64,000 nt of DNA from Patescibacteria group bacterium (GCA_041660605.1 JBAZWB010000001.1:622503-686502); one strand, 5' to 3'; positions 24,008-41,467 are shown, counted from the first letter of the stretch. Program-made: numbers and translations. The notes: generated by a model from the sequence alone, not told the origin.

Positions 24008-25687
24008 TTAACTCTGTTGAATTTTATTTTTAAGTGTTCGGCCAATTAATCCCAGATGCTTCTCAAGCCAGCCAGAAACCAGCAGTCGTAAAAACGTTCT
24101 GGTAACGGTAATTGCCGAAAACATGCTGACCAAAACACCGATACCCAGGGTTATAGCAAAGCCTTTAATAACACTAGTTCCGAACCAGGCCAGGATAAAA
24201 CACGTAATTAAGCTTGATATATTCGAATCACGGATTGAAAGCCAGGCCCGACTAAATCCTTCTTCAATTGCCAGACCTAAATTTTTACCATCTCTTAATT
24301 CTTCACGTGTGCGCTCAAAAATAAGTATATTTGCGTCTACGGCCATTCCGATTGATAATATAAAACCAGCGATTCCTGCCAAGGTTAAAGTGATGCCAGT
24401 TAATTTGAAAATTGAAACGGTAATTAAGGCATATATAAACAAGGCGATAACCGATATCAATCCTGGCAGGCGATAATAAACTATCATGAATATAGCCACC
24501 AAAGTTAAACCGATTACACCGGCTAATAAGCTTTTTTGTACTGATGCCTGGCCCAGTGTTGCGCCGATCGAATTTTGAGATACCAAAGTGATCGGTACCG
24601 GCAGAGCGCCGGCATTCAACCTCTGTACAAGCATTTTAGCTTCTTCAAGAGTAAATCCACCACCACCTGATATTACCGCACTACCATCTAAAATTGGCTC
24701 ATTCACTTTCGGTAAGGAGATCGGAGAACCATCCAAATATATGCCAACCACTTTACCGACATTTCGTTTTGTAATTTCAGCAAATAAATCCCTTCCTTCT
24801 GTATTAAATTCCAGCAAGACCTGGGGCTCATTTGTGTTTTGATCAAATTGGACGGAAGCGCGTTTTAATTCTTTACCCGAAAGTCCAGTATTGGTAAATT
24901 GCGTCTGCCCTGTAGTTGACTGTTTAGTAAATAGAATATGACTGGCGCTGACTTGATTGTCCTTTTCTCCAGTTTTTTTGATGATATGATAACCAAAATC
25001 CGTTTCTACGATCTCAGGATAGATTTCGTCAACTTTCATCTTATCAAAAACTACATTGGCAAATTCAGGCACCATCTGTTCTCTGGTAAAAAAGCCGAGA
25101 TCACCACCTTTTTTCTCTTGAGTTGTCTGATCGGTATTTCCCGGATCCTGCGAATATTGGTTAGCTAAAGCTGCAAAATCTGCGTTAGGCTTGAGTGCTT
25201 CCTGCAGAATTTCAGCCGCTTTTTGCTTAGCCTGAGCATTTGCATCGTCAATGGTTTTAATCTGATCAGCAGTAAGCGTGGTAGTAGTCTCCTCTTTAAA
25301 TTCCAAAAGAGGGGTCTCACCAATCATTTTTATTGCTTCATCGACATTTGTAACGCCAGCTAATTCCACAATAACCCGCCATTTTTCCCCTACTTTACTA
25401 GTTTGTATAACAGGCTCGGAAACGCCAAAAGCATTTACCCTGCGTTCAATTACGTCACGGACGCCATCAATAGAGGAGGCCTGGTCAGCGGCTGGAACTT
25501 GAGAAACATTCGCATCATATACTAATTGGGTTCCTCCCTGTAAATCCAAGCCTAAATGAATTTTTACTTCTTTAAAATAACTGCCAATATGGATATCCGG
25601 GCCTTTAGGATAAGCAAATAAACCGGCCAAAATAGCCAAAATAATAATACCCGCAAATGTCAGCCAGATTTTTTTCCTAAAACTCAT
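24008..25687 (-). CDS. secD: Protein translocase subunit SecD carrying a parvulin-like (PpiC-type) PPIase domain inserted in the periplasmic P1 head
   Basis: SecD motifs GLDLQGGTQLVYDANV, GETPLLEF and LNAGALPVP are present, with the RND-like TM bundle. Inside P1, roughly aa 140-250, lies DFAALANQYSQDPG...GGDLGFFTREQMVPEFANVVF...TDFGYHIIKK...SASHILF. Confidence 0.88.
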   Translation of the reverse strand: MSFRKKIWLTFAGIIILAILAGLFAYPKGPDIHIGSYFKEVKIHLGLDLQGGTQLVYDANVSQVPAADQASSIDGVRDVIERRVNAFGVSEPVIQTSKVGEKWRVIVELAGVTNVDEAIKMIGETPLLEFKEETTTTLTADQIKTIDDANAQAKQKAAEILQEALKPNADFAALANQYSQDPGNTDQTTQEKKGGDLGFFTREQMVPEFANVVFDKMKVDEIYPEIVETDFGYHIIKKTGEKDNQVSASHILFTKQSTTGQTQFTNTGLSGKELKRASVQFDQNTNEPQVLLEFNTEGRDLFAEITKRNVGKVVGIYLDGSPISLPKVNEPILDGSAVISGGGGFTLEEAKMLVQRLNAGALPVPITLVSQNSIGATLGQASVQKSLLAGVIGLTLVAIFMIVYYRLPGLISVIALFIYALITVSIFKLTGITLTLAGIAGFILSIGMAVDANILIFERTREELRDGKNLGLAIEEGFSRAWLSIRDSNISSLITCFILAWFGTSVIKGFAITLGIGVLVSMFSAITVTRTFLRLLVSGWLEKHLGLIGRTLKNKIQQS

Positions 25688-29961: not shown

Positions 29962-30234
29962 TTATTTGCATACGCCTAGACAAGCGCAGTGATTTTCCAA
30001 AATACCCTCACTTTTGATGCAGGAAGGCCTTAAGCAATTATTATTTCCGCAAATTCCTGCACAATCCTTGCTGGTCTGACAAACCCTATCTCTTAAACCG
30101 GCTCCCGGATTTTTAATTTCAAGGGAGTCATTCGCTGGCCTTGTCTGTAAAAACCAAAGACCGGATAATATTATTACCAGCAAAAAAGTTAAGATAGGAA
30201 TTGTCAGCTTGGCATTTACTAATTTATTATTCAT
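29962..30234 (-). CDS. Small secreted cysteine-rich peptide precursor with a defensin-like CxxxC...CxC pattern
   Basis: An N-terminal signal/anchor (IPILTFLLVIILSGLWFL) precedes a roughly 40-aa domain with 8 Cys: VCQTSKDCAGICGNNNCLRPSCIKSEGILENHCACLGVCK. Confidence 0.5.
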   Translation of the reverse strand: MNNKLVNAKLTIPILTFLLVIILSGLWFLQTRPANDSLEIKNPGAGLRDRVCQTSKDCAGICGNNNCLRPSCIKSEGILENHCACLGVCK

Positions 30235-30876: not shown

Positions 30877-31331
30877 ACTTCTTCTTCAGAAATCACGCTT
30901 ATTCCATTATTTTTTAATAAAGCAGTTGTTACACCGTCATTTTTAACGCTTTTTTTTGAAAATGTCCCATCATAGATCCTGCCACTGCCACACGATGGAC
31001 TCCCCTGTTTTAAAATGGCTTTATGCGCATTATACATTTTAGCAATTTTCAAAACCTCGTTGGCTCCTTTTATAAACTCCACAGTTACTTCATTACCGTT
31101 ACTTTCGACAACCTTGGCTTTATTATTTAAAACATCCTGACCGCCTCCATTTTGTATTTCAGCATCTAGTCTTGGCGTAGTTTGTCCGCCCAGTTGTTCG
31201 GGACAGACTGGAATTATTATTTGTTTATTCAATAAATCAGCGACTTTATCGTTATAATTATTTTTTCCGTTATATTTGCAATTTATACCCAGCAAGCAGG
31301 CACTGCAAATTATAATACTTCTATTTTCCAT
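30873..31331 (-). CDS. DUF523 family protein (TudS-like, Cys-rich)
   Basis: IIICSACLLGINCKYNGKNNYND...IIIPVCPEQLGG matches DUF523. The start was chosen at internal Met (MENRSIIICSAC) because the longer ORF to 31376 overlaps the secA 3' end by 56 nt. Confidence 0.6.
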   Translation of the reverse strand: MENRSIIICSACLLGINCKYNGKNNYNDKVADLLNKQIIIPVCPEQLGGQTTPRLDAEIQNGGGQDVLNNKAKVVESNGNEVTVEFIKGANEVLKIAKMYNAHKAILKQGSPSCGSGRIYDGTFSKKSVKNDGVTTALLKNNGISVISEEEV

Positions 31332-34089
31332 GGCACTTCTTATATTTTTTTCCTGAACCACATGGACACAGATCATTTCGACCGACCTTCTTGCCTTTTA
31401 AATTAACTAAATTACCTGCGGCGGTATGTTGCGTATCGCCCACTTTTTCCTTAACTGCCGGTTGACTGGAAGAATCTCGTTTGGTACTCATATTCTGATA
31501 AGGACTGGAAACAACCTGATCAGATGTTTTTGCCGGGGCAATAAGTTGCTGGCGTCTGGTAGCCATTGGAGTAACTGTCGAAGGCTGGCCTAAATTGACT
31601 TTAAAAATAGTATAAACAACATTCTTCTGAATATTATTAATCAATTCGTTAAAAAGATTGTAAGCTTCTTTTTTATATTCAACCAACGGATCTCTTTGGC
31701 CATAACCGCGCAGACCTATGCCGCGTCTGAGATGATCCACCATATCCAGATGCTCAATCCATAAAGTATCGATGGCGCGTAAATAAACCGCCATCTCTAT
31801 ATTTTTCATCATCACAGGGTTGTTAATCTTAGTTTCCAGATTATCATATGACAGATTCGCCAATTTCAAGAGATATTGGATTATCGTTGTCCTGGCTGCG
31901 GCATCCTGCTGTTTGTCGCCAGCTTTTTCTCTGATATCCTCCAGCCTTATACGATTTTCCAGGGCCACTGGAAAAATTGTATCAATTACTTCATAAATTT
32001 CATCTAAATTCCACTGATTTTCATTATCTGCTGAGGTGTGGAACGAGACCACTTGTTCAATTTCACTTTCAACCAGGTCTATTATTTTATCTCTCAGTCT
32101 GATCTCCTTTCCTGACTCATCTTTCATTCCTGATTCAGTTACTTCCAATATTTCATTGCGGCGCTTGTATATTACTTCCCGATGTTTATTTATAACATCG
32201 TCATATTCCACTAAATGTTTTCTGATGTCAAAATTATGGCCCTCAACTTTTTTTTGCGCGCTTTCAATGGATTTGGAGATCAAGCGGTTTTCAATTGGCA
32301 TGTCTTCCGGCAGTCCCAATTTGTCCATCATGCTTTTCATTCTGTCGGATCCGAATATTCTTAAGAGATCATCTTCCATAGAAACAAAAAACTGCGAAGA
32401 ACCGGGATCTCCCTGCCTGCCTGCGCGACCGCGCAATTGATTGTCAATTCTACGTGATTCGTGTCTTTCCGTGCCAAGGACATGCAAACCGCCTAATTTT
32501 ATAACTTCCGCCTGTTCATTTTTATCCGGATGCGGTCCGCCTAAAATAATGTCAACACCACGACCGGCCATATTTGTGGCCACCGTCACTGCCCCCTTTT
32601 TGCCTGCCTGAGCTAAAAACATAGCTTCTTTTTCATGATTCTTTGCATTTAATACGTTATGTTTGATCCCCTCTCTTTCCAGCAATTGACTGATGATTTC
32701 ATTTTTCTCTATTGAAATGGTGCCAACTAAAATCGGCTGGCCCAATTCGGTGCGAATTTTTATTTCCTTAACCAAGGCCCTGAATTTTCCAATTTCATTT
32801 TTATAAATTGAATCAGTCGAGTCTTTTCTTACCATTGGCTGATTTGTGGGAATTTCCACAACTTCTAGGGTGTATATTTTATGAAATTCTTCAGCTTCTG
32901 TCGCAGCCGTACCCGTCATACCGGCTAATTTTTTGTACATGCGGAAGTAATTTTGAAAGGTGATGGTGGCCATGGTCTGGCTTTCCTGTTTTATCTCTAC
33001 TCCTTCCTTTGCCTCTATAGCCTGATGGAGCCCTTCGGAATACCTCCTGCCATACATTAGCCGGCCGGTAAATTCATCAACTATTATTACCTCCCCTTCT
33101 TTCACGACATAATCCTTATCCTTTTGAAAAAGGGCTTTGGCTTTTAGCGATTGTTCAATGTGATGGACGGTTTCAATGCCTTCTGCTTGATAAATATTTT
33201 CGATACCCAACATTTTTTCCATTTTAGCAATTCCAATTTCCGTCAAAGTTGATGCCCTCATTTTTTCGTCAATATTATAATCTGTGTTTTCTTCCAATTG
33301 GCCCACATGCTGGGCAAATTTATAATACTTGTCGGTAGATTCTTCTGCCGGCGAGGAAATGATCAGCGGCGTGCGTGCTTCATCGATAAGTATGCTGTCA
33401 ACTTCGTCGACAATGGCAAAATTTAAATCTCTTTGAACTTTATATTTCATTGTCGGCACCATATTGTCTCGCAAATAATCAAATCCAAATTCATTGTTAG
33501 TGCCATAAGTTATGTCAGCCAAATACGCATCCCTTCGTTCGATTAACTTCAAATGTGCCAAACGTTCATCCGTAACGTCCTTTTCGCTGTAATTTTCGTC
33601 AAAAATAAAAGCTTGCTCATGCGTGATGCAGGCAACCTTCAATCCTAAAAAATTAAGTGCGACTCCATACCAGCCGGCGTCTCTTTTTGCCAAATAATCA
33701 TTAACCGTAACTATATGTACTCCTTTGCCCTCTAACGCATTTAGGTATGCGGAAATGGCGGCTGATAAAGTTTTGCCTTCACCAGTCTTTTGTTCAGCAA
33801 TTTTCCCCTGATGAAGGACTATAGCCGCCATCAGCTGTACGTCATAGGCTCTTTGCTTGACTGTTCTTTTTATCGCTTCTCTGATCACGGCGCAAGATTC
33901 GGGCAAAATCTCGTCAATTTTTTTACCCTGGCTAAGTTCTTCTTTGAATTGTTGTGTTTTTTTTCTTAAATCTTGGTCATTTAAAGAAGAAACTTGCTTT
34001 TCAAATGAATTAATTTTATCAATAAAAGGACGTAAATTTTTTATTACGTTTTTGTTGCTACTGCCAAGTAAGTTAGTTAAAAAAGACAT
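31321..34089 (-). CDS. secA: Protein translocase ATPase SecA
   Basis: A full-length SecA with DEAD motor domains, PPXD and HSD, and the C-terminal zinc finger CPCGSGKKYKKCHGK. Confidence 0.95.
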   Translation of the reverse strand: MSFLTNLLGSSNKNVIKNLRPFIDKINSFEKQVSSLNDQDLRKKTQQFKEELSQGKKIDEILPESCAVIREAIKRTVKQRAYDVQLMAAIVLHQGKIAEQKTGEGKTLSAAISAYLNALEGKGVHIVTVNDYLAKRDAGWYGVALNFLGLKVACITHEQAFIFDENYSEKDVTDERLAHLKLIERRDAYLADITYGTNNEFGFDYLRDNMVPTMKYKVQRDLNFAIVDEVDSILIDEARTPLIISSPAEESTDKYYKFAQHVGQLEENTDYNIDEKMRASTLTEIGIAKMEKMLGIENIYQAEGIETVHHIEQSLKAKALFQKDKDYVVKEGEVIIVDEFTGRLMYGRRYSEGLHQAIEAKEGVEIKQESQTMATITFQNYFRMYKKLAGMTGTAATEAEEFHKIYTLEVVEIPTNQPMVRKDSTDSIYKNEIGKFRALVKEIKIRTELGQPILVGTISIEKNEIISQLLEREGIKHNVLNAKNHEKEAMFLAQAGKKGAVTVATNMAGRGVDIILGGPHPDKNEQAEVIKLGGLHVLGTERHESRRIDNQLRGRAGRQGDPGSSQFFVSMEDDLLRIFGSDRMKSMMDKLGLPEDMPIENRLISKSIESAQKKVEGHNFDIRKHLVEYDDVINKHREVIYKRRNEILEVTESGMKDESGKEIRLRDKIIDLVESEIEQVVSFHTSADNENQWNLDEIYEVIDTIFPVALENRIRLEDIREKAGDKQQDAAARTTIIQYLLKLANLSYDNLETKINNPVMMKNIEMAVYLRAIDTLWIEHLDMVDHLRRGIGLRGYGQRDPLVEYKKEAYNLFNELINNIQKNVVYTIFKVNLGQPSTVTPMATRRQQLIAPAKTSDQVVSSPYQNMSTKRDSSSQPAVKEKVGDTQHTAAGNLVNLKGKKVGRNDLCPCGSGKKYKKCHGK

Positions 34090-34175: not shown

Positions 34176-34721
34176 TTATTGATTTCCTTTTTCAACAAAT
34201 TTTTTTATCCAGATTGCCATTATCGGCACTAATGACAGCTGGATTAAAATTCCAGGCCACGCAATTTTCGTTGCCAGCCAGACACTGATAAAAGGATTTA
34301 ACTGGCCAGAAGAAAATAAGGTCAATGCTGCGATCAATCCCAGCCTGCCAATTATCATGGAAAAAATTAGCGATAGATATATATTTAAATTCAGTTTCTC
34401 CCGGAAAATTCCGGCCAATAAACCATAAAAAGTCAACTCTGCGGTTATCTGCGGTAAGACTGCGAGCATTGGCATTCCTGACGTGGCAAAACTAACCAGA
34501 GGTGTAAAAAGTCCGACAATTAAGCCAGTTCTCCAGCCAAAAATTAAACCCGCTATCAATACAAAAATATGCATTGGTAAAAAAATAGGGCCGGCCAGAT
34601 TGAATTGATGCGTAAACTGCGGTAAGCCTACCGCTAAAGCCACAAAAAGTGAGGTAAACGCTATTAATTCTATTTTTTCTATTCTGACTATTGGTAATGA
34701 TAAAGAATTAATTTTTTGCAT
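34176..34721 (-). CDS. Hypothetical polytopic membrane protein, possibly an ECF-S-component-like transporter subunit
   Basis: About 5-6 TM helices and an S-component-like size. I recognise no motif. Confidence 0.35.
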   Translation of the reverse strand: MQKINSLSLPIVRIEKIELIAFTSLFVALAVGLPQFTHQFNLAGPIFLPMHIFVLIAGLIFGWRTGLIVGLFTPLVSFATSGMPMLAVLPQITAELTFYGLLAGIFREKLNLNIYLSLIFSMIIGRLGLIAALTLFSSGQLNPFISVWLATKIAWPGILIQLSLVPIMAIWIKKFVEKGNQ

Positions 34722-34730
34722 AAATGTTTA

Positions 34731-35111
34731 TCAATTTTTAATCAGTTTAAATAATGTTTTTCCATTTGATTTTTTTATGTACTGCAATGCCTGGCGATGT
34801 GATTGCTTTAACATCTTTTCTAAAATTGACTGTAATTTAATAATAATTATCCTTTTATTTTTGTAGAAAACCGCCTTTTCGAATTCTTTTTTCCTGATTG
34901 TTTTTATCTTATTTTTTCCAAGCGTACATCCGGTAGAAAGCTGTAATCCGTCAAGCAGGCATGAAACTGGAGGATTTATTTTTGTATAAATCGTAATTTT
35001 ATCAATATTTGATAGATGCCTTCTCACATAAGCACCCATGACATATCCCAAAACTACATATGGTCCAATATGGCCATGAAGTGATTTTATAATCTTTAAA
35101 TTAACTTTCAT
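34731..35111 (-). CDS. FmdE-family domain protein
   Basis: LHGHIGPYVVLGYVMG...DGLQLSTGCTLGKN resembles the FwdE/FmdE HGHxCPG...TGCTxGK pattern. Confidence 0.45.
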   Translation of the reverse strand: MKVNLKIIKSLHGHIGPYVVLGYVMGAYVRRHLSNIDKITIYTKINPPVSCLLDGLQLSTGCTLGKNKIKTIRKKEFEKAVFYKNKRIIIIKLQSILEKMLKQSHRQALQYIKKSNGKTLFKLIKN

Positions 35112-35989
35112 TTCTTCAAATAATCTGAAATGATTTTATAAACTAATTTTGCTGCTAAGAAATCTGGTGCCTCAATACCGGGCATTGGTTTTAATTCCAC
35201 TACGTCAGCGCCTATCAAATTTACTTTGCTGATTAACTCATCAATAAATTTAATGGTTTCATGCCAGTAATGACCGCCTGGTTCAGGAGTACCCACGGAT
35301 GGCATAATGCTCGGATCAAAAAAATCCAGATCAAAAGTTAAATATACGTTCTTTGTTAACTTTTTCAATACTTCATTGATATTTGGCAGCTGTGGCGCAA
35401 AATAGACTGATTTTTTGGATTTTTTCTGAAGGTATTTATTGATCTGCGGATTCATATTGCGAACGCCGAATGAAACTACTGGAATCTTTTTTTCTTCTAA
35501 CCGGCGAATGACGCAAGCATGGCTGAATGGCGTGCCTTCATATTCAGACAAAACGTCAGTATGGGCGTCAAAATGCAAAATTGATATATTTTTATACTTT
35601 TTTTGCAGGGCTTCGATACAGCCGTATGTGATTGAATGTTCGCCGCCCAATACCATTGGAAATTTATCGTACTTAACTGCAAAATCATAGACAGCCTGGC
35701 TAATGCCGCCCAAGGAAAGTTTAATAGAGCTTTTATGCGGTCTAATCTCTTCTGCAGTAAAAAAATCGCTGGTTTTAATGTTAAAAGCAGTGCCATTTTC
35801 TTCTATATCCCAAAGTTCATCCATAAATCTAGAAGCATTTATTATCGCCTGGGGACCCTGGCTGGTACCGACTCCATAAGATACCGTTGATTCAAAAGCT
35901 ATTGGTAAAACAACGACTCTGGCGCTTTCAAACGTTGCGCCGAAATTTGCCCCAAAATTAAACGGTAATATTTCGTAATTTTTTTTCAT
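35108..35989 (-). CDS. speB: Agmatinase (ureohydrolase/arginase family)
   Basis: Mn-binding motifs GGEHSIT, HFDAHTD and DLDFFDPS are present. The gene lies in a polyamine context beside speA. Confidence 0.8.
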   Translation of the reverse strand: MKKNYEILPFNFGANFGATFESARVVVLPIAFESTVSYGVGTSQGPQAIINASRFMDELWDIEENGTAFNIKTSDFFTAEEIRPHKSSIKLSLGGISQAVYDFAVKYDKFPMVLGGEHSITYGCIEALQKKYKNISILHFDAHTDVLSEYEGTPFSHACVIRRLEEKKIPVVSFGVRNMNPQINKYLQKKSKKSVYFAPQLPNINEVLKKLTKNVYLTFDLDFFDPSIMPSVGTPEPGGHYWHETIKFIDELISKVNLIGADVVELKPMPGIEAPDFLAAKLVYKIISDYLKK

Positions 35990-36002
35990 TTTAGAAAATT
36001 AA

Positions 36003-37103
36003 TTAAAGGTTTAGTAAGTAAGCAGCTAACCAGGGAAAAACAACGGTAACATCACTTTGAATTATTTGGTAATAGCTTTGCGTAGAAAGCTTATCCCAGG
36101 TAATTTTTTCTTTACCTCCGGCTCCAGAATACGAACCAAAAGACATTGGCGAAGAACCGATTTCAATAAATCCTGCCCAGCTCCTGACATTTTTAATTCT
36201 TAAATCATGCTTCAAGGATGGAATAACGCAAATCGGAAAATCAGCTGCGATGCCTCCGCCTAACTGGAGGAAAGCAACCGGATGTTCTTTTGAAACCGAC
36301 ATATACCAATCATAAAGAAAGTGAAAATATTCAATCCCGGTTTTCATGACATTTTGATTGAAAGTAACATCACTTTTTTTCTTATGCTTACCGCGATACG
36401 TATAGCTGGAAAATATATTGCCCATAGTTGAGTCCTCAAAGCCTGGAATAACGATGGGAATATTTTTCTCAAAAGCTGCATAGGCCCAGCAGTCATTTAT
36501 ATTGCTCTGCGGATCAGGCGAGATTAATTTCTCCGAAAATAATCTTCTGAAATATTCGTGCGGAAAATAGCGTTGAGATTTTTTTTCAGCCTGCCGCCAC
36601 ATTTTCAAAAGATGCGGTTCCATAATTCTGACACTCTCATCTTCAGGCAAAAAAGTATCCGTTATTCTGCGCAGGCCAGCGTCTCTAAGCTCAGCTTCCT
36701 GTTCCGGCGTCAGTTCAGTGTACCTGGGAATATAAGCATAATGCGAATGGGCTACATACCTATAATAAGATTCCTCATGGTTCGCGCCCGTAGCCGAGAT
36801 CAGATGGACCTTGTTTTTTCTGATCAATTCAGCCAGCATCACTCCTATTTGAAATGAACTTAAGGCTCCGGCTAAAGTCACTACCAGCTTGCCACCATTA
36901 TCAAGATGTTTTTTTAGCCATTCCGCTGATTGTAAAGTAGCGCCGGCATTGCAGTGCTGTAACGTTATTTTAGCATACGCAGATATACGCGCTTCCTGTT
37001 TTTTAATATTTTCAGTCAGAGATAATCCGGAATTCTTTTTATTCTCCAGGATAATTAATTTCCGCAAAGATGGAGATAGCTTATTTAATGCTTTATTATC
37101 CAT
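36003..37103 (-). CDS. Deoxyhypusine synthase-like protein, a homospermidine-synthase-type NAD-dependent aminobutyl transferase
   Basis: Features of the DHS family are present: VTLAGALSS, ISATGANHEE and GGGIAADFPI. It sits between the agmatinase and speA. Confidence 0.75.
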   Translation of the reverse strand: MDNKALNKLSPSLRKLIILENKKNSGLSLTENIKKQEARISAYAKITLQHCNAGATLQSAEWLKKHLDNGGKLVVTLAGALSSFQIGVMLAELIRKNKVHLISATGANHEESYYRYVAHSHYAYIPRYTELTPEQEAELRDAGLRRITDTFLPEDESVRIMEPHLLKMWRQAEKKSQRYFPHEYFRRLFSEKLISPDPQSNINDCWAYAAFEKNIPIVIPGFEDSTMGNIFSSYTYRGKHKKKSDVTFNQNVMKTGIEYFHFLYDWYMSVSKEHPVAFLQLGGGIAADFPICVIPSLKHDLRIKNVRSWAGFIEIGSSPMSFGSYSGAGGKEKITWDKLSTQSYYQIIQSDVTVVFPWLAAYLLNL

Positions 37104-37122
37104 AAATTAAAATGATTAATTA

Positions 37123-38406
37123 TTATAAATAATCCCAAGTTTGCAATAAATCGCTGTCGGAATACCATCTCTCACCGATATCAACTCTATAAAACATATT
37201 TTGCAGCCGGATATTTTTAATGCGATTATAAGCCTGCCTTCTGGCGTCATCGACTGTATTGCCGCTGCCGGAAATAACCAGGGCGTAACCTGATTGTCCG
37301 GCTATTCTGAGTTTTCCGTCAATCATTTTCACGTCACCCAGATGGATGCCGTCCCAATCCGGATGATTTCTCCTGAATAATATCGATAAATCGCGGTAAA
37401 CGGAGATAGTTTCCTGATCATCTGAAAGATATGGATCAATAATACAGCAAATGCCCACTTGAAATCCTTTTTTTACGGGAATGTTGAAAGTTTCTCCTGA
37501 AGCCAGCCTATAAAAAAATTCTCCCAGCGGCATCTCTATCCCTATTGCCTGTACATCTATAGTCGGATAGCCGAATCGGGAAGTAAATTCGAGCGGATAG
37601 ATGCCGCGGGCATTAACAATGCAATTAATATCAAAATAGCCGACATAACCAGAGGCCGTAAGCTTTTCCTTAAGCTTACCCATGGTATTTTTAAACAAAC
37701 CATTTGGCTGAGCCCAAAACATTAGTGCTCCCATGTCCCCTGTCAGTGGCCCTAGATCACCGGGAAAAAGCCTTTTGTGCTCAAAATTAATATTAATAGG
37801 GGTTAGGAATTCTTTGCCGTTAAAAAATGCTCCGACCGCGGTTTCTACCCCTGAGGCGTATTTTTGTAATTGAAATGTCTTTATTTTTGATCGCCAGATT
37901 CTTTTATTTGACTGCAGCAGCTCAAGTATGTCAGCACCGTTTTCCTCCTCTCCTATAAACAATAGATCTTTGAACTCCTGGGCAGCGCCACTTGGCTTAA
38001 AAACATAACGTCCGGGATTTTTTTGCAAAAAATGAATGGCTGAATCAAAACTATGGAAATCCCAGTGCGGTAAAATCAGAAGTCCGGCTTTCTGCATTTC
38101 TGTCTGACCAAAATTTCTATCATCTTCCAACTTGTCGGTATAAACACTGCCGCCAATTACCTTTTTCCCGGATTTTCTTAAAGCATCCGCTTCATTACCA
38201 AAACCCACATCATCAAATATGATCACGTCAGCCCAATCTATAAAATCTTTCCAATTTTTTACTTTCATTAAAATACCGTCATAAACGTCAGAATCTGTTT
38301 TTGATTTGATATACACTTTAACTTCATGCCCTTCTTTTTGTATACGCCAGGCAATGTCACCGCTCAAGCTTTCCCATGAGACGAATAGAAATTTTTTATG
38401 TGTCAT
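37123..38406 (-). CDS. PurD-like ATP-grasp ligase (phosphoribosylamine--glycine ligase homolog) of uncertain substrate
   Basis: VFKPSGAAQ, FPGDLGPLTGDMGAL, YVGYFDINCIVNARGIYPLEFTSRFGYP and GNTVDDARRQAYNRIKNIRLQNMFYRVDIG align with the PurD A/B/C domains. The start was moved to MTHKKFLFVSW because the longer ORF to 38574 overlaps speA by 146 nt. Confidence 0.6.
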   Translation of the reverse strand: MTHKKFLFVSWESLSGDIAWRIQKEGHEVKVYIKSKTDSDVYDGILMKVKNWKDFIDWADVIIFDDVGFGNEADALRKSGKKVIGGSVYTDKLEDDRNFGQTEMQKAGLLILPHWDFHSFDSAIHFLQKNPGRYVFKPSGAAQEFKDLLFIGEEENGADILELLQSNKRIWRSKIKTFQLQKYASGVETAVGAFFNGKEFLTPININFEHKRLFPGDLGPLTGDMGALMFWAQPNGLFKNTMGKLKEKLTASGYVGYFDINCIVNARGIYPLEFTSRFGYPTIDVQAIGIEMPLGEFFYRLASGETFNIPVKKGFQVGICCIIDPYLSDDQETISVYRDLSILFRRNHPDWDGIHLGDVKMIDGKLRIAGQSGYALVISGSGNTVDDARRQAYNRIKNIRLQNMFYRVDIGERWYSDSDLLQTWDYL

Positions 38407-38428
38407 TTCCGTATATGATGTATAATAT

Positions 38429-39997
38429 TTACCACCCAAATAATTTTCCCACATCATCGGGCGTTTCACGGCGGCGAATGACTTTTGTTTCGCCATTTTG
38501 CGCAATAATTTTTGCCGGAGAAGACAATAAGCAATGGTGGGAAGCCAGCGCATCCTGATAAGCTCCAGTATCAAAAAATGAAATATATAATGATTCGTTT
38601 TCAGGTAAATTATCCAGGCTTGGCAGCATTATATAATTTCCATGAGCGATGTATTTGTCATCTGAATCACAAGATGAGCCAGCCAGCCAGGCCCTGATCA
38701 GCTTTTTGCTATCTGCAGCATTTACAGGCACCACGTGCCATTTCTGGTGCAAAGCCCAGGTATCCAGTAAATCATTCATAAAACTGCCATCGATAATATA
38801 CCATTTTCTGGCATTTCCTTTGGGAATATTTTTTTCACCAATAACCTTAAAAATTGAAATCTGTGCCGGTGCAACGATATATCGCCCCCATTCACAAATT
38901 AGATTTGGATGCGAGATGCCTTCCCGGTCAGCCGTATTTTGCAAAAATTTAATGATTTTTCTGGTTAAACCTTCAATGCCATATTGCCTTTTGCGTTCAT
39001 AAGGGATAGGCATGCCACCGCCGATATCCAGCGTGTCCAAGGTTGGGTTCAGCTTTTTCAGCTTAATGTAAATATCCATGGCTTTCTTGATCGGCGACAT
39101 AATATCCTCAAGTAGTTCAATTTGCGAGCCGACATGATAATGCAAAATTTTTAAGTTACGTATCTTACCGATTTTTAATAGCTCCTGAGGCAAAAATCCG
39201 AAACGATTTATTTTTTTATCCCAGTGCGAATGGACTTTAATATCTAAATCAACTCTTATGCCAACATCACCTTTATATGTCTGTAAAAACCTTAATTCAT
39301 TAAAATCTTCTATAATGGGAATTATCGAGAGATTATTATTTTTTAATTCATTTATTAGATTTAAATAATCTTCTGTTTTTGGACCGTTACAAATGACTTT
39401 AATGCCCGAGTGAAAACTATTCTGCTCCCAAAGTTTTTTTACTAAAAAAAGTTCGTTGTAAGAGCCGACCTCCAAATTCGCTCCTTCTGCGACTAATGAT
39501 AAGATATACTCCTTATTTTGGTTTACTTTCATGGGAAAGTGGTAGTAGAATTTACCTCGGTATTTATAATACCTCATGAAAAGCCTAAATAGGTCAATCA
39601 AGTCCTCTAGCCTCTCTTTTAAAATAAAGGGGAAGAAAATTTCTAATGAGGTGCCAAATTTTTGCACTAAACTTTTGATATTATATTGGTAATTGCCTTC
39701 GAGTACTATCAATTCTCCATTTTGATTTATATCAAAGTATTGAGTATTGAAATCTTTGCCATTTAACTTCCAAAATTTTCTGATTCTTTTCAATATTTTT
39801 TTATTTATTCCTGAATCGTCCGGGCTGTGAATTATGACATCTTCTCTTTTCTTATCTTCTACAATATTTTCGGTTTTTAATATAATTTCTGTTTTAGCAT
39901 TGCTTAATTTTTTTTGTGCACCATCATCAATTTTTTGCGAATTATTTTTCATGTTTTTAATTAAATTTCTTTTAAAAAATAAGTTATCCACATTCAA
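38429..39997 (-). CDS. speA: Biosynthetic arginine decarboxylase (PLP-dependent, alanine-racemase-fold SpeA type) with an N-terminal extension of about 70 aa
   Basis: HYHVGSQ, GGGMPIPY and the C-terminal beta-barrel are present, in agmatinase/DHS context. Confidence 0.8.
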   Translation of the reverse strand: MNVDNLFFKRNLIKNMKNNSQKIDDGAQKKLSNAKTEIILKTENIVEDKKREDVIIHSPDDSGINKKILKRIRKFWKLNGKDFNTQYFDINQNGELIVLEGNYQYNIKSLVQKFGTSLEIFFPFILKERLEDLIDLFRLFMRYYKYRGKFYYHFPMKVNQNKEYILSLVAEGANLEVGSYNELFLVKKLWEQNSFHSGIKVICNGPKTEDYLNLINELKNNNLSIIPIIEDFNELRFLQTYKGDVGIRVDLDIKVHSHWDKKINRFGFLPQELLKIGKIRNLKILHYHVGSQIELLEDIMSPIKKAMDIYIKLKKLNPTLDTLDIGGGMPIPYERKRQYGIEGLTRKIIKFLQNTADREGISHPNLICEWGRYIVAPAQISIFKVIGEKNIPKGNARKWYIIDGSFMNDLLDTWALHQKWHVVPVNAADSKKLIRAWLAGSSCDSDDKYIAHGNYIMLPSLDNLPENESLYISFFDTGAYQDALASHHCLLSSPAKIIAQNGETKVIRRRETPDDVGKLFGW

Positions 39998-40087: not shown

Positions 40088-40999
40088 TTAAAAACCGACA
40101 TACTTTATTTCTTCCTGCAATTGAATCCCAAACTGATCCCTGGCTTGCTGTTTAATATAACTAATCAGCATAACTACATCTTCGGCCTTTGCCTCGCCAG
40201 AATTTATAATAAAGTTTGCGTGCTCTGGAGATACTTGCGCACCTCCAATTTTTTTACCACGTAAACCCAGTTTATCAATGATTTCCCAGGCCTTTTTATT
40301 AGGCGGATTCTTGAATATTGAACCAGCACACGGCAGGTTCGCAGGCTGATGCTGGCGCTTTTCCAGATAATATTTAATTTTTCGCCGAATTTCACTTGGT
40401 GACGATTCTGATAATTTCAGGACTGCCGATAAAATAATCTCTGATCCGTTATTTTTAAACCGGCTGTTTCGGTAAGAAAAATCACAATCCCTTCCGTCAA
40501 TAATTTCTATTTGACCGTGATTATTTACTATCTCTACCTTTTTTATGCATTTCTCTATCCACTCAGTTGGCGTACCGATATTCCCGGCAATGCCTCCGCC
40601 CAATGTTCCGGGTATGCCAATTAAATGCTCCAGACCGGAAAGATTTCTTAGTATTGACAATTGGATTAATTTTTGTAATTTTATCCCCGATTCTGATTTA
40701 ACCAGATCACCATTAAATTCAATATCCTTATTTTCCATTTTTATAACCAGCCCATCAAACCCCTTATCGCAAAATAAAATATTGCTGCCGCTGCCGAGAA
40801 CAAAATAATTAATTGAATTATTTCTCGAATAGTCTACCGCTTTTACTACGTCCTCGTTATTTTTTGCGATAAAAAAATATTTTGCTTTACCGCCTATTTT
40901 AAAGGTAGTATAGGCTGATAGGCTTTTATTGAATTTTACATCCTTCAATATTTTGCTGATGGAACTGCTATTTACTTTCATATATTGACATTTTAGCAC
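40088..40999 (-). CDS. murB: UDP-N-acetylenolpyruvoylglucosamine reductase MurB
   Basis: FKIGGKAKYFFIAKNNEDVVKAV and GSGSNILF show the FAD-binding domain. The gene lies in the mur gene cluster. Confidence 0.9.
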   Translation of the reverse strand: MLKCQYMKVNSSSISKILKDVKFNKSLSAYTTFKIGGKAKYFFIAKNNEDVVKAVDYSRNNSINYFVLGSGSNILFCDKGFDGLVIKMENKDIEFNGDLVKSESGIKLQKLIQLSILRNLSGLEHLIGIPGTLGGGIAGNIGTPTEWIEKCIKKVEIVNNHGQIEIIDGRDCDFSYRNSRFKNNGSEIILSAVLKLSESSPSEIRRKIKYYLEKRQHQPANLPCAGSIFKNPPNKKAWEIIDKLGLRGKKIGGAQVSPEHANFIINSGEAKAEDVVMLISYIKQQARDQFGIQLQEEIKYVGF

Positions 41000-41044: not shown

Positions 41045-41467
41045 ATGATATCGCTCCTTGAGAGTTTTTTTCCACTAAAATTCATAAAAAGAATCGTCAA
41101 GCTTGCTGAGGAAAGCGAGATTTCCTGCCTGGAAATAAGCACTTGGTTCGGCCTGCGCCAGCTGGTAATAAATAAAAAATATCGCCAACATTGCCAGACA
41201 GACAAGAAATCTACGATCGCAGCAGACGATGAATTTTATGGGATGGTCTACGCACCTGCAAAAGGAAGATTCTATTTCCATGATGCGCCATTTTTCTCGA
41301 ATTCCAATTGCCTAGTGAAACAGGGCCAATTGCTTGGCAGGATTATCAAAGGCCGGAATACCACTGATGTTTTGGCTTGCGATACGGGAATGATAATCTC
41401 AGTAATGGTCAAAAATGGCAGCAAAGTTTCAAGTGGACGACCTCTCTTTTTGATTGAAAAAAAATAA
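41045..41467 (+). CDS. Biotin/lipoyl-like (barrel-sandwich hybrid) domain protein, degenerate BCCP-like with no canonical biotinyl-lysine motif
   Basis: The C-terminal 75 aa, MVYAPAKGRFYFHDAP...VKQGQLLGRIIKGRNTTDVLACDTGMIISVMVKNGSKVSSGRPLFLIE, align to the BCCP biotinyl domain. AMKM is replaced by KGRN. It is the only plus-strand gene inside the minus-strand dcw cluster. Confidence 0.45.
   Translation: MISLLESFFPLKFIKRIVKLAEESEISCLEISTWFGLRQLVINKKYRQHCQTDKKSTIAADDEFYGMVYAPAKGRFYFHDAPFFSNSNCLVKQGQLLGRIIKGRNTTDVLACDTGMIISVMVKNGSKVSSGRPLFLIEKK

Follow-up and report, generated by a model that had tools for sequence, protein, structure and literature searches.

Homologues of deoxyhypusine synthase in bacteria (SpeY) join two molecules of agmatine to give N1,N9-bis(guanidino)homospermidine (G44G), which an agmatinase homologue turns into homospermidine (PMC10981699; PMC13625781); the SpeY-associated agmatinase homologues use G44G, not agmatine (PMC13625781), and the published speY gene clusters contain arginine decarboxylases of several folds accompanied by agmatinase or else by agmatine iminohydrolase and N-carbamoylputrescine amidohydrolase (PMC10981699; PMC13625781). 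Genes of these families stand side by side in a 64,000-nucleotide (nt) stretch of a Patescibacteria group bacterium genome (GCA_041660605.1, JBAZWB010000001.1:622503-686502; hereafter the window, with positions counted from its first letter), where the gene for an ATP-grasp protein, here called ATPG, lies between a speA-like decarboxylase gene and speY. The closest described enzyme to ATPG is PurD, the glycinamide ribonucleotide (GAR) synthetase of purine biosynthesis (EC 6.3.4.13). On balance, the gene row probably comprises two co-transcribed parts, and not one conserved pathway: a homospermidine route, and a PurD-derived ATP-grasp ligase that is not a GAR synthetase.

ATPG is a PurD-derived ligase of an uncharacterised family distributed over Patescibacteria, DPANN archaea and phages. 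This large and mis-annotated family is a more interesting result than the polyamine module, which adds one more lineage to a known pathway.

Fold and active site of ATPG

The relationship between ATPG and PurD is evident in sequence and in predicted structure. Solved PurD structures are the sole sequence matches of the protein in a PDB search (E 7e-18 to 6e-4), with an alignment that spans residues ~73-415 by phmmer and runs from residue 1 when the family profile is used, and both motifs quoted in the earlier note are present in the open reading frame (ORF). The AlphaFold (AF2) model, with a predicted local distance difference test score (pLDDT) of 76 and a predicted template modelling (TM) score (pTM) of 0.79, retrieves PurD as all of its top 15 Foldseek matches in the PDB (TM 0.65-0.71, 14-21% identity), biotin carboxylases and PylC coming next, and model and matches together display the overall N-B-A-C ATP-grasp fold of PurD. 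The earlier note's alignment with PurD along the length of the protein is thus upheld, yet ATPG is not a plain PurD: it reaches 85 bits against the PurD equivalog TIGR00877, for which the cut-off is 288 bits, and the residues described below are replaced. Of the component domains, GARS_A is matched at 40 bits and GARS_C at 33.8 bits, just below its cut-off of 34.8, and the GARS_N domain was not found in a Pfam scan.

Residue roles follow a quantum mechanics/molecular mechanics study on the PurD of A. aeolicus (PMC8880213) and the paper describing the human GARS structure (PMC2978367), and were mapped through HMMER alignments. The set that serves ATP, Mg and the acyl-phosphate is retained, A. 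aeolicus K103, K143, E185, E192, K214, E100, E283 and R287 corresponding to R97, K137, Q181, E188, K211, E94, E273 and R277 of ATPG, all invariant or nearly so in 20 close and 13 distant members, phage proteins included; the catalytic core kept in ATPG also counts E209. The substrate residues of human GARS are replaced. In the GGREHA motif, Arg13, at the phosphate/acyl-phosphate site, and Glu14, which holds the ribose of phosphoribosylamine (PRA), become invariant L14 and S15, respectively; in GDPE, Asp295, ligand of the PRA amine and general base, becomes the nearly invariant Y280, and Glu297, at the glycine amine, becomes T282; and the C-domain Arg385, which binds the PRA phosphate, becomes Y374, invariant in the Patescibacteria/DPANN set and variable in the phage branch. 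The GLAAGK B-loop, a contact of the ATP gamma-phosphate, is absent, the aligned segment being variable and devoid of a Gly-rich loop or conserved Lys, and the classical Asn metal ligand is Thr (T275). Among the glycine-binding residues of A. aeolicus PurD, Asp212 has changed to Glu (E209, invariant), Arg287 is kept (R277) and Glu292 is Thr, Ile or His (T282); the Asp-to-Glu change and the loss of Glu297 suggest that the acyl donor may not be glycine bound as in PurD.

The surroundings of the gene were likewise searched for purine biosynthesis. Scanning of proteins encoded between ~18 and 52 kb of the window brought up no pur gene, in agreement with the earlier note, and the annotated recurrent neighbour clusters of 83 ATPG loci included none either, in a scan that did not cover unclustered neighbours; de novo nucleotide synthesis is lacking in 93% of Patescibacteriota genomes (bioRxiv 10.64898/2026.06.21.733656). 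GAR synthetase activity is very unlikely in view of the replaced substrate residues, the absence of the pathway from most Patescibacteriota and the lack of a pur gene in the scanned set, and the notion of a moonlighting PurD is contradicted by the lost PRA-binding residues, general base and B-loop.

Methyltransferase partners and spread of the family

Genomic context was compared across a sample of 83 distinct ATPG-centred loci, with flanks of ~10 genes, in which ORFs were called and clustered and the recurrent clusters annotated. The tight partner of ATPG is a methyltransferase, of the SET or class I type and in one case fused to it. A methyltransferase lies within three genes of ATPG in 35 of the 83 loci; among adjacent co-directional neighbours, a small protein with a SET domain (SETa, ~140 aa) is the most frequent, seen in 17 loci from bacteria and archaea at a median gap of 13 nt, and a class I methyltransferase (MTase9) is encoded directly upstream in 11 loci. 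All matches to SETa (23), to a further SET cluster, SETb (12), to MTase9 (11) and to an LPG_synthase_C-like protein (7) sit one to three genes from ATPG, and 759 kb of SpeY-centred Patescibacteria DNA contained no SET match. The fusion, from a high-GC bacterium, joins the ATP-grasp protein to a C-terminal SETa-like domain (P0189; L172, 180-4915; E 4.9e-14), and is preceded in its operon by an RlmN-like radical-SAM gene, a CMAS-like methyltransferase gene and a separate SET gene; an autotransporter gene is found on the same contig.

A protein with the CxxCxxCC motif (PF03692) is encoded directly upstream of ATPG in two cellular loci (L003, 7469-7996; L019) and two genes upstream in a phage contig (L087, 7179-7688). 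A similar Cys motif occurs in the flagellin lysine methylase FliB (PMC8598068); the likeness is limited to this motif and NCBIfam gave no match, and the protein hints only weakly at methylase partners of a third kind. Neighbouring TGT, DUF192 and DNA_alkylation genes were set aside as clade-specific synteny, since they are restricted to a single clade and lie on the opposite strand.

The family is large and strongly conserved. A word-indexed search gave more than 7000 ATPG matches, the best 120 of which, at 61-83% identity, represent many Patescibacteria lineages and also Woesearchaeota, and identity across Patescibacteria and DPANN archaea is 60-83%. At least 348 species-level genomes with ATPG were found in a GTDB scan, among them contigs as long as 857 kb from Pacearchaeota, Nanoarchaeota and Micrarchaeota, and an exhaustive profile search of 1.84 billion representatives produced 689 clusters at 50% identity (E<1e-30). 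The cultured haloarchaeon Halorussus (GCA_003369835.1) encodes a member, annotated as PurD, that scores 514 bits and stands in a solitary context (WP_115795769.1; L171, 10001-11341). Halorussus is a tractable organism for functional tests of ATPG.

Distant members, at 30-40% identity, belong to phage head modules (P0133 scoring 425 bits to the profile). The gene order is TerL, CxxCxxCC protein, portal::MuF, ATPG, protease and major capsid in an IMG/VR contig (L087, 7712-11287), and TerL, portal and ATPG in two further contigs (L175, 2623-6240; L176), with portal, ATPG and MuF forming a single polypeptide of 1236 aa in another (P0181; L177, 2818-6528). An unannotated ATPG ORF is present in Myoviridae sp. 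MW202796 (L086, 12001-13293), the one true relative in the GenBank phage set; the remaining matches in that set, at ~22-25% identity, were discarded as ordinary PurD, and several of these came from unannotated fragments or from records of bacteria. A pattern scan of IMG/VR returned one viral ATPG locus only. Searches of PHROGs and PADLOC gave no family matching the ATP-grasp protein, SETa, or the FmdE and membrane proteins of the window. The phage relatives of ATPG are encoded directly after the portal gene, and no PHROG family covers them.

LAGLIDADG/Hint inteins, one or two per member, were observed in P0122, P0123, P0124, P0127, P0142, P0161 and P0265. Their insertion points fall inside catalytic motifs: after GPx in GPxTGEMG, after GEMG, and after EFT in EFTCRFGYP.

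Literature searches on ATP-grasp enzymes in connection with agmatine, Patescibacteria, PurD in the candidate phyla radiation (CPR), SET and portal/MuF proteins found no description of the ATPG family. Thousands of Patescibacteria and DPANN genomes carry ATPG under the label 'phosphoribosylamine--glycine ligase', inflating their apparent purine capacity. With 60-83% identity maintained across phyla and the divide between bacteria and archaea, ATPG is among the better-conserved enzymes of these reduced genomes, and it has inteins and phage relatives.

The polyamine genes and the surrounding gene row

The speA product is a pyridoxal phosphate (PLP)-dependent decarboxylase of the alanine-racemase fold, presumed to be an arginine decarboxylase by context and by comparison with PMC13625781; its top NCBIfam model is biosynthetic arginine decarboxylase (222 bits in two stretches, below cut-off), and it is short, resembling the 'ancestral' type without the ~100-aa helical insert. 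SpeY keeps the catalytic Lys, ITWDKL aligning to SWGKI of an archaeal deoxyhypusine synthase (DHS), and is of a divergent lineage as judged by its scores against the curated equivalogs NF001980 and NF002699 (73.7 and 71 bits against cut-offs of 450 and 500, respectively). The agmatinase homologue exceeds the agmatinase equivalog cut-off of 174 bits (Table 1).

Close relatives of this SpeY, at 74-80% identity, were collected in a second sample of 80 metagenomic loci (L089-L168), the neighbours being clustered without prior labels. Agmatinase (23), PAD_porph of the agmatine deiminase family (20), SpeA-like proteins (19) and CN_hydrolase (18) are found among these neighbours, as are PvlArgDC and AdoMet_dc (4) homologues, and at least one polyamine partner is present in 53 of the 80 loci. 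Because these neighbours match the published SpeY signature, speA, speY and the agmatinase gene are best read, by homology and context, as the published agmatine-dependent route to homospermidine: the speA product would convert arginine to agmatine, SpeY is predicted to join two agmatine into G44G, and the agmatinase homologue is predicted to release homospermidine and urea from G44G, the substrate indicated by PMC13625781. The compact polyamine pathway with homospermidine-type chemistry that the earlier note had described fits this known agmatine/SpeY route, which the window extends to Patescibacteria.

The DNA examined for the other 27 SpeY loci, many of which are short contigs, held no polyamine partner. 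SpeY is unusually conserved in Patescibacteria, at 74-80% identity over the 80 loci, and pairs either with agmatinase or with agmatine deiminase and CN-hydrolase.

The link between these genes and ATPG is narrower. Polyamine genes stand within three genes of ATPG in 13 of the 83 ATPG loci, 12 of which fall in one ATPG subclade, to which the window belongs, with L082 as the exception; reciprocally, tblastn and hmmsearch placed ATPG in none of the 80 SpeY-centred loci, so that conserved linkage in both directions is not observed. The window's subclade has the ancestral frame murB-hpf-ATPG-secA, and its polyamine genes lie within that interval in orders that vary: SpeA-ATPG-SpeY-agmatinase in the window, PvlArgDC-ATPG-SpeY-agmatinase in L008, SpeY-agmatinase-methyltransferase-ATPG in L041 and L049, and SpeY-ATPG-agmatinase in L069. 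Loci with SpeY and without ATPG include the same frame, murB-hpf-speA-speY-secA (L095, L114 and L151), and the closest relatives of the window (L006 and L001) read speA-ATPG-secA, with neither speY nor agmatinase. Since the reciprocal test fails and the nearest relatives lack speY and agmatinase, the juxtaposition is taken to be specific to the lineage; the acceptor may be a polyamine here, yet this does not define the family. ATPG is consequently not a conserved member of the polyamine module in which the earlier note had placed it, its partner elsewhere being a SET or class I methyltransferase and its genes occurring also in phage head modules; the accompanying idea of a polyamine-conjugating ligase is not borne out in its general form, and survives as a minority reading for this lineage.

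The six-gene row itself is real. Six co-directional and close-packed ORFs were recovered on the minus strand between murB and secA, as the earlier note had described, and Pfam and NCBIfam scans bear out each domain assignment (Table 1). With the short start for the ATP-grasp gene, the successive intergenic gaps are 22, 19, 13, -4 and 9 nt, the negative value being a 4-nt overlap of the FmdE ORF start with the agmatinase stop; the single-strand run extends from ftsW through secA. A promoter and terminator scan of 33.9-41.2 kb gave site counts equal to those of shuffled controls, so that such sites do not place the operon boundaries, and co-transcription of the row is likely, yet of little meaning in so compact a genome. 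An Rfam scan of the window gave no match. The GC content of the window is ~35%, and homologues are from Patescibacteria.

Table 1. The gene row between murB and secA, with its flanking genes, in window coordinates
Feature	Position	Strand	Matches and remarks
murB	40088..40999	-	Bounds the conserved interval murB-(hpf)-ATPG-secA on its upstream side; in related loci, cluster 'MurB' with FAD_binding_4 and MurB_C
speA-like PLP decarboxylase	38429..39997	-	Pfam Orn_Arg_deC_N 90.4 bits, Orn_DAP_Arg_deC 26.5 bits
PurD-like ATP-grasp ligase (ATPG)	37123..38406	-	427 aa; GARS_A 40 bits; TIGR00877 85 bits
SpeY, deoxyhypusine synthase homologue	36003..37103	-	Pfam DS 105.6 bits
Agmatinase-family ureohydrolase	35108..35989	-	TIGR01230 202 bits (cut-off 174); Pfam Arginase 196.7 bits
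FmdE-domain protein, 126 aa	34731..35111	-	Pfam FmdE 59.7 bits
Polytopic membrane protein, 181 aa, energy-coupling factor (ECF) transporter S component- or 5TM-like	34176..34721	-	Pfam ECF_trnsprt 42.7 bits
secA	31321..34089	-	Downstream flank of the murB-(hpf)-ATPG-secA interval

The true start of ATPG is probably the ATG at 38406, 22 nt past the speA stop. The 56-aa N-terminal extension mentioned in the earlier note is an ORF artefact: the long ORF (37123-38574) opens with a TTG at 38574 that overlaps speA by 146 nt, a 444-aa call starting at 38457 also overlaps speA, and the nearest homologues, of 428 aa, start a few residues ahead of the conserved KKFLFVS.

The FmdE-like protein and the ECF-S-like/5TM membrane protein, which also matches a folate-family S component model at 19.4 bits, below cut-off, are a small gene pair. 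The same membrane protein recurs downstream of ATPG together with a TM1506/DUF1893 protein in four loci (L041, L048, L049 and L064), FmdE replacing TM1506 in the window; an operon pair of TM1506 and 5TM has been described (PMC3239186).

Further observations concern other parts of the window. A 140-aa ORF on the opposite strand (41045-41467, +) fills the 503-nt gap between murB and murC, with a sub-threshold match to Biotin_lipoyl (19.9 against 22.1 bits); it resembles a biotin carboxyl carrier protein, although the usual biotinylation motif looks degenerate. SecD (24008-25687, -) carries a PPIC-type peptidyl-prolyl isomerase (rotamase) domain between the first periplasmic subdomain and the P1 head. 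A 90-aa ORF (29962-30234, -) encodes a protein whose N-terminus resembles a signal or anchor and whose C-terminus is rich in Cys, with a weak defensin-like Pfam match (18 bits, below cut-off).

Candidate reactions and known relatives

The retained machinery for ATP, Mg and acyl-phosphate suggests that ATPG should activate a carboxylate as its acyl-phosphate and then join it to an amine. A cationic primary amine would be the favoured acceptor, either a polyamine or the lysine-type amine of a protein or peptide, because the phosphate-binding Arg and the Asp base have become Leu and Tyr, acidic residues are invariant and the partners are N-methyltransferases; the invariant acidic residues (D17, D40, D60, D65, D66 and D91) lie in N-domain loops facing the PurD active-site cleft, as placed by PurD sequence alignment only. 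We tentatively propose, as one possibility among those considered here, that ATPG and its SET or class I methyltransferase may constitute an undescribed amine-modification system, combining ATP-dependent acylation with N-methylation of a lysine-type or polyamine amine, conserved in Patescibacteria and DPANN, and with phage relatives in or beside portal and MuF head proteins. Were this so, the product would be a new cationic metabolite or a new modification of proteins that ultra-small symbionts need; identification of the ATPG reaction would supply a missing piece of these organisms' minimal metabolism and could reveal new modification chemistry.

Several observations tell against the two-part reading of the row and the cationic-amine acceptor that goes with it. 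The cationic-amine idea is based on residue substitutions rather than on a docked or solved complex, and a metal-ligand position has changed from Asn to Thr. Within the 64-kb window there is no SET or MTase9 gene, and ATPG lies inside the polyamine row with gaps of 19-22 nt. In its subclade, moreover, ATPG adjoins polyamine genes in shuffled orders and with two non-homologous arginine decarboxylases (the window, L006, L001, L008, L003, L041, L049, L064 and L069, with L082 from another clade), and shuffling with kept adjacency and two decarboxylase types is what functional coupling can look like.

These last observations are also the grounds for regarding ATPG as a polyamine-conjugating ligase, which would form an amide between glycine, or some other small acid, and one of its neighbours' products, agmatine, G44G or homospermidine. 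The tight co-directional spacing between speA and speY, the 13 of 83 loci with nearby polyamine genes in several orders and with both PLP-dependent and pyruvoyl decarboxylases, and the loss of phosphate-binding arginines together with the Tyr and acidic residues acquired at the nucleophile site, which would suit a polycation, all speak for such an enzyme; it is nonetheless unlikely, given that ATPG is missing from all 80 SpeY loci, even the three in the same frame, that the linked cases other than L082 come from one subclade in which both gene sets use the same conserved interval, that the closest relatives have speA beside ATPG without speY or agmatinase, that the family extends far beyond the linkage, into phage head modules and a haloarchaeon without polyamine neighbours, and that the SpeY literature mentions no such enzyme. 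Less probable again is a cell-envelope ligase placing an amino acid or amine onto the carboxylate of a peptidoglycan stem peptide, or onto an amino-lipid head group. Polyamine-substituted peptidoglycan is known from the classical literature, ATPG ends the dcw/mur row in several loci, directly after murB or murC and approximately where ddl often lies, and LPG_synthase_C-like genes are one to three genes away in seven loci; but mur adjacency is restricted to one subclade, and DPANN archaea, in which ATPG is highly conserved, lack murein, as does the haloarchaeon that carries it; phage head modules have ATPG too. Replacement of Ddl by ATPG was set aside in view of the archaeal and phage members.

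A catalytically inactive ATPG, keeping only the fold as a structural or binding protein, would agree with the Thr at the classical metal-ligand position, the missing B-loop and the fusion of phage relatives to structural proteins, and is highly improbable: cellular and phage members alike keep, without variation, the Lys that binds ATP, both Glu that bind Mg and the Arg of the acyl-phosphate, and inteins sit exactly in the catalytic motifs, as is typical of functionally essential sites. To an even smaller degree can the public annotation, phosphoribosylamine--glycine ligase, be credited as denoting a genuine, divergent GAR synthetase. PurD structures are the best matches in sequence and fold, and the DHKR-like, GPxTGxMG and YRxDIG motifs are held in common; the equivalog score is far from the 288-bit cut-off, the replacements for the residues of the PRA phosphate, ribose, general base and B-loop are themselves invariant within the family, pur genes are missing from the scanned window proteins and from the annotated recurrent clusters (unclustered neighbours lying outside that scan), the pathway is absent from most Patescibacteriota, and the phage versions include fusions to portal and MuF proteins.

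Compared with the published pathway of arginine decarboxylase, SpeY and agmatinase (SpeB), the speA-like, DHS-like and agmatinase genes of the window are of the same families and cluster in the same way, and SpeY relatives here pair with agmatinase or with agmatine iminohydrolase and N-carbamoylputrescine amidohydrolase, and with arginine decarboxylases of three folds. The published clusters, in contrast, are without an ATP-grasp gene; Patescibacteria are not among the lineages tested, and the SpeY and arginine decarboxylase of the window score under NCBIfam equivalog cut-offs.

With PurD (TIGR00877; structures 2YW2, 2YS6, 2QK4, 1GSO and 5VEV), ATPG shares the four-domain ATP-grasp fold, the ATP-binding Lys and Glu, the Mg-binding Glu, the acyl-phosphate Arg, the (D/E)HKR, GPxTGxMG and YRxDIG motifs and, probably, the chemistry that leads from carboxylate through acyl-phosphate to amide. 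Unlike PurD, it has S-L-S-G-D in place of GGREHA, GYPT in place of GDPE and Tyr in place of the C-domain Arg, is without GLAAGK and purine-pathway context, and is found both in phage head modules and in organisms that do not make purines de novo. The ATP-dependent amide bond to a lysine-type or polyamine amine predicted for ATPG would be of the kind made by PylC, by RimK/TTL-type protein ligases and by glutathionylspermidine synthetase, and PylC is among the structural matches of the model; the pairing of SET and ATP-grasp domains in TTLL12-like proteins is a formal analogy. ATPG has no specific sequence relationship to these amine-acylating ligases, Pfam and PDB searches giving only GARS, and its domain organisation and motifs are of the PurD type.

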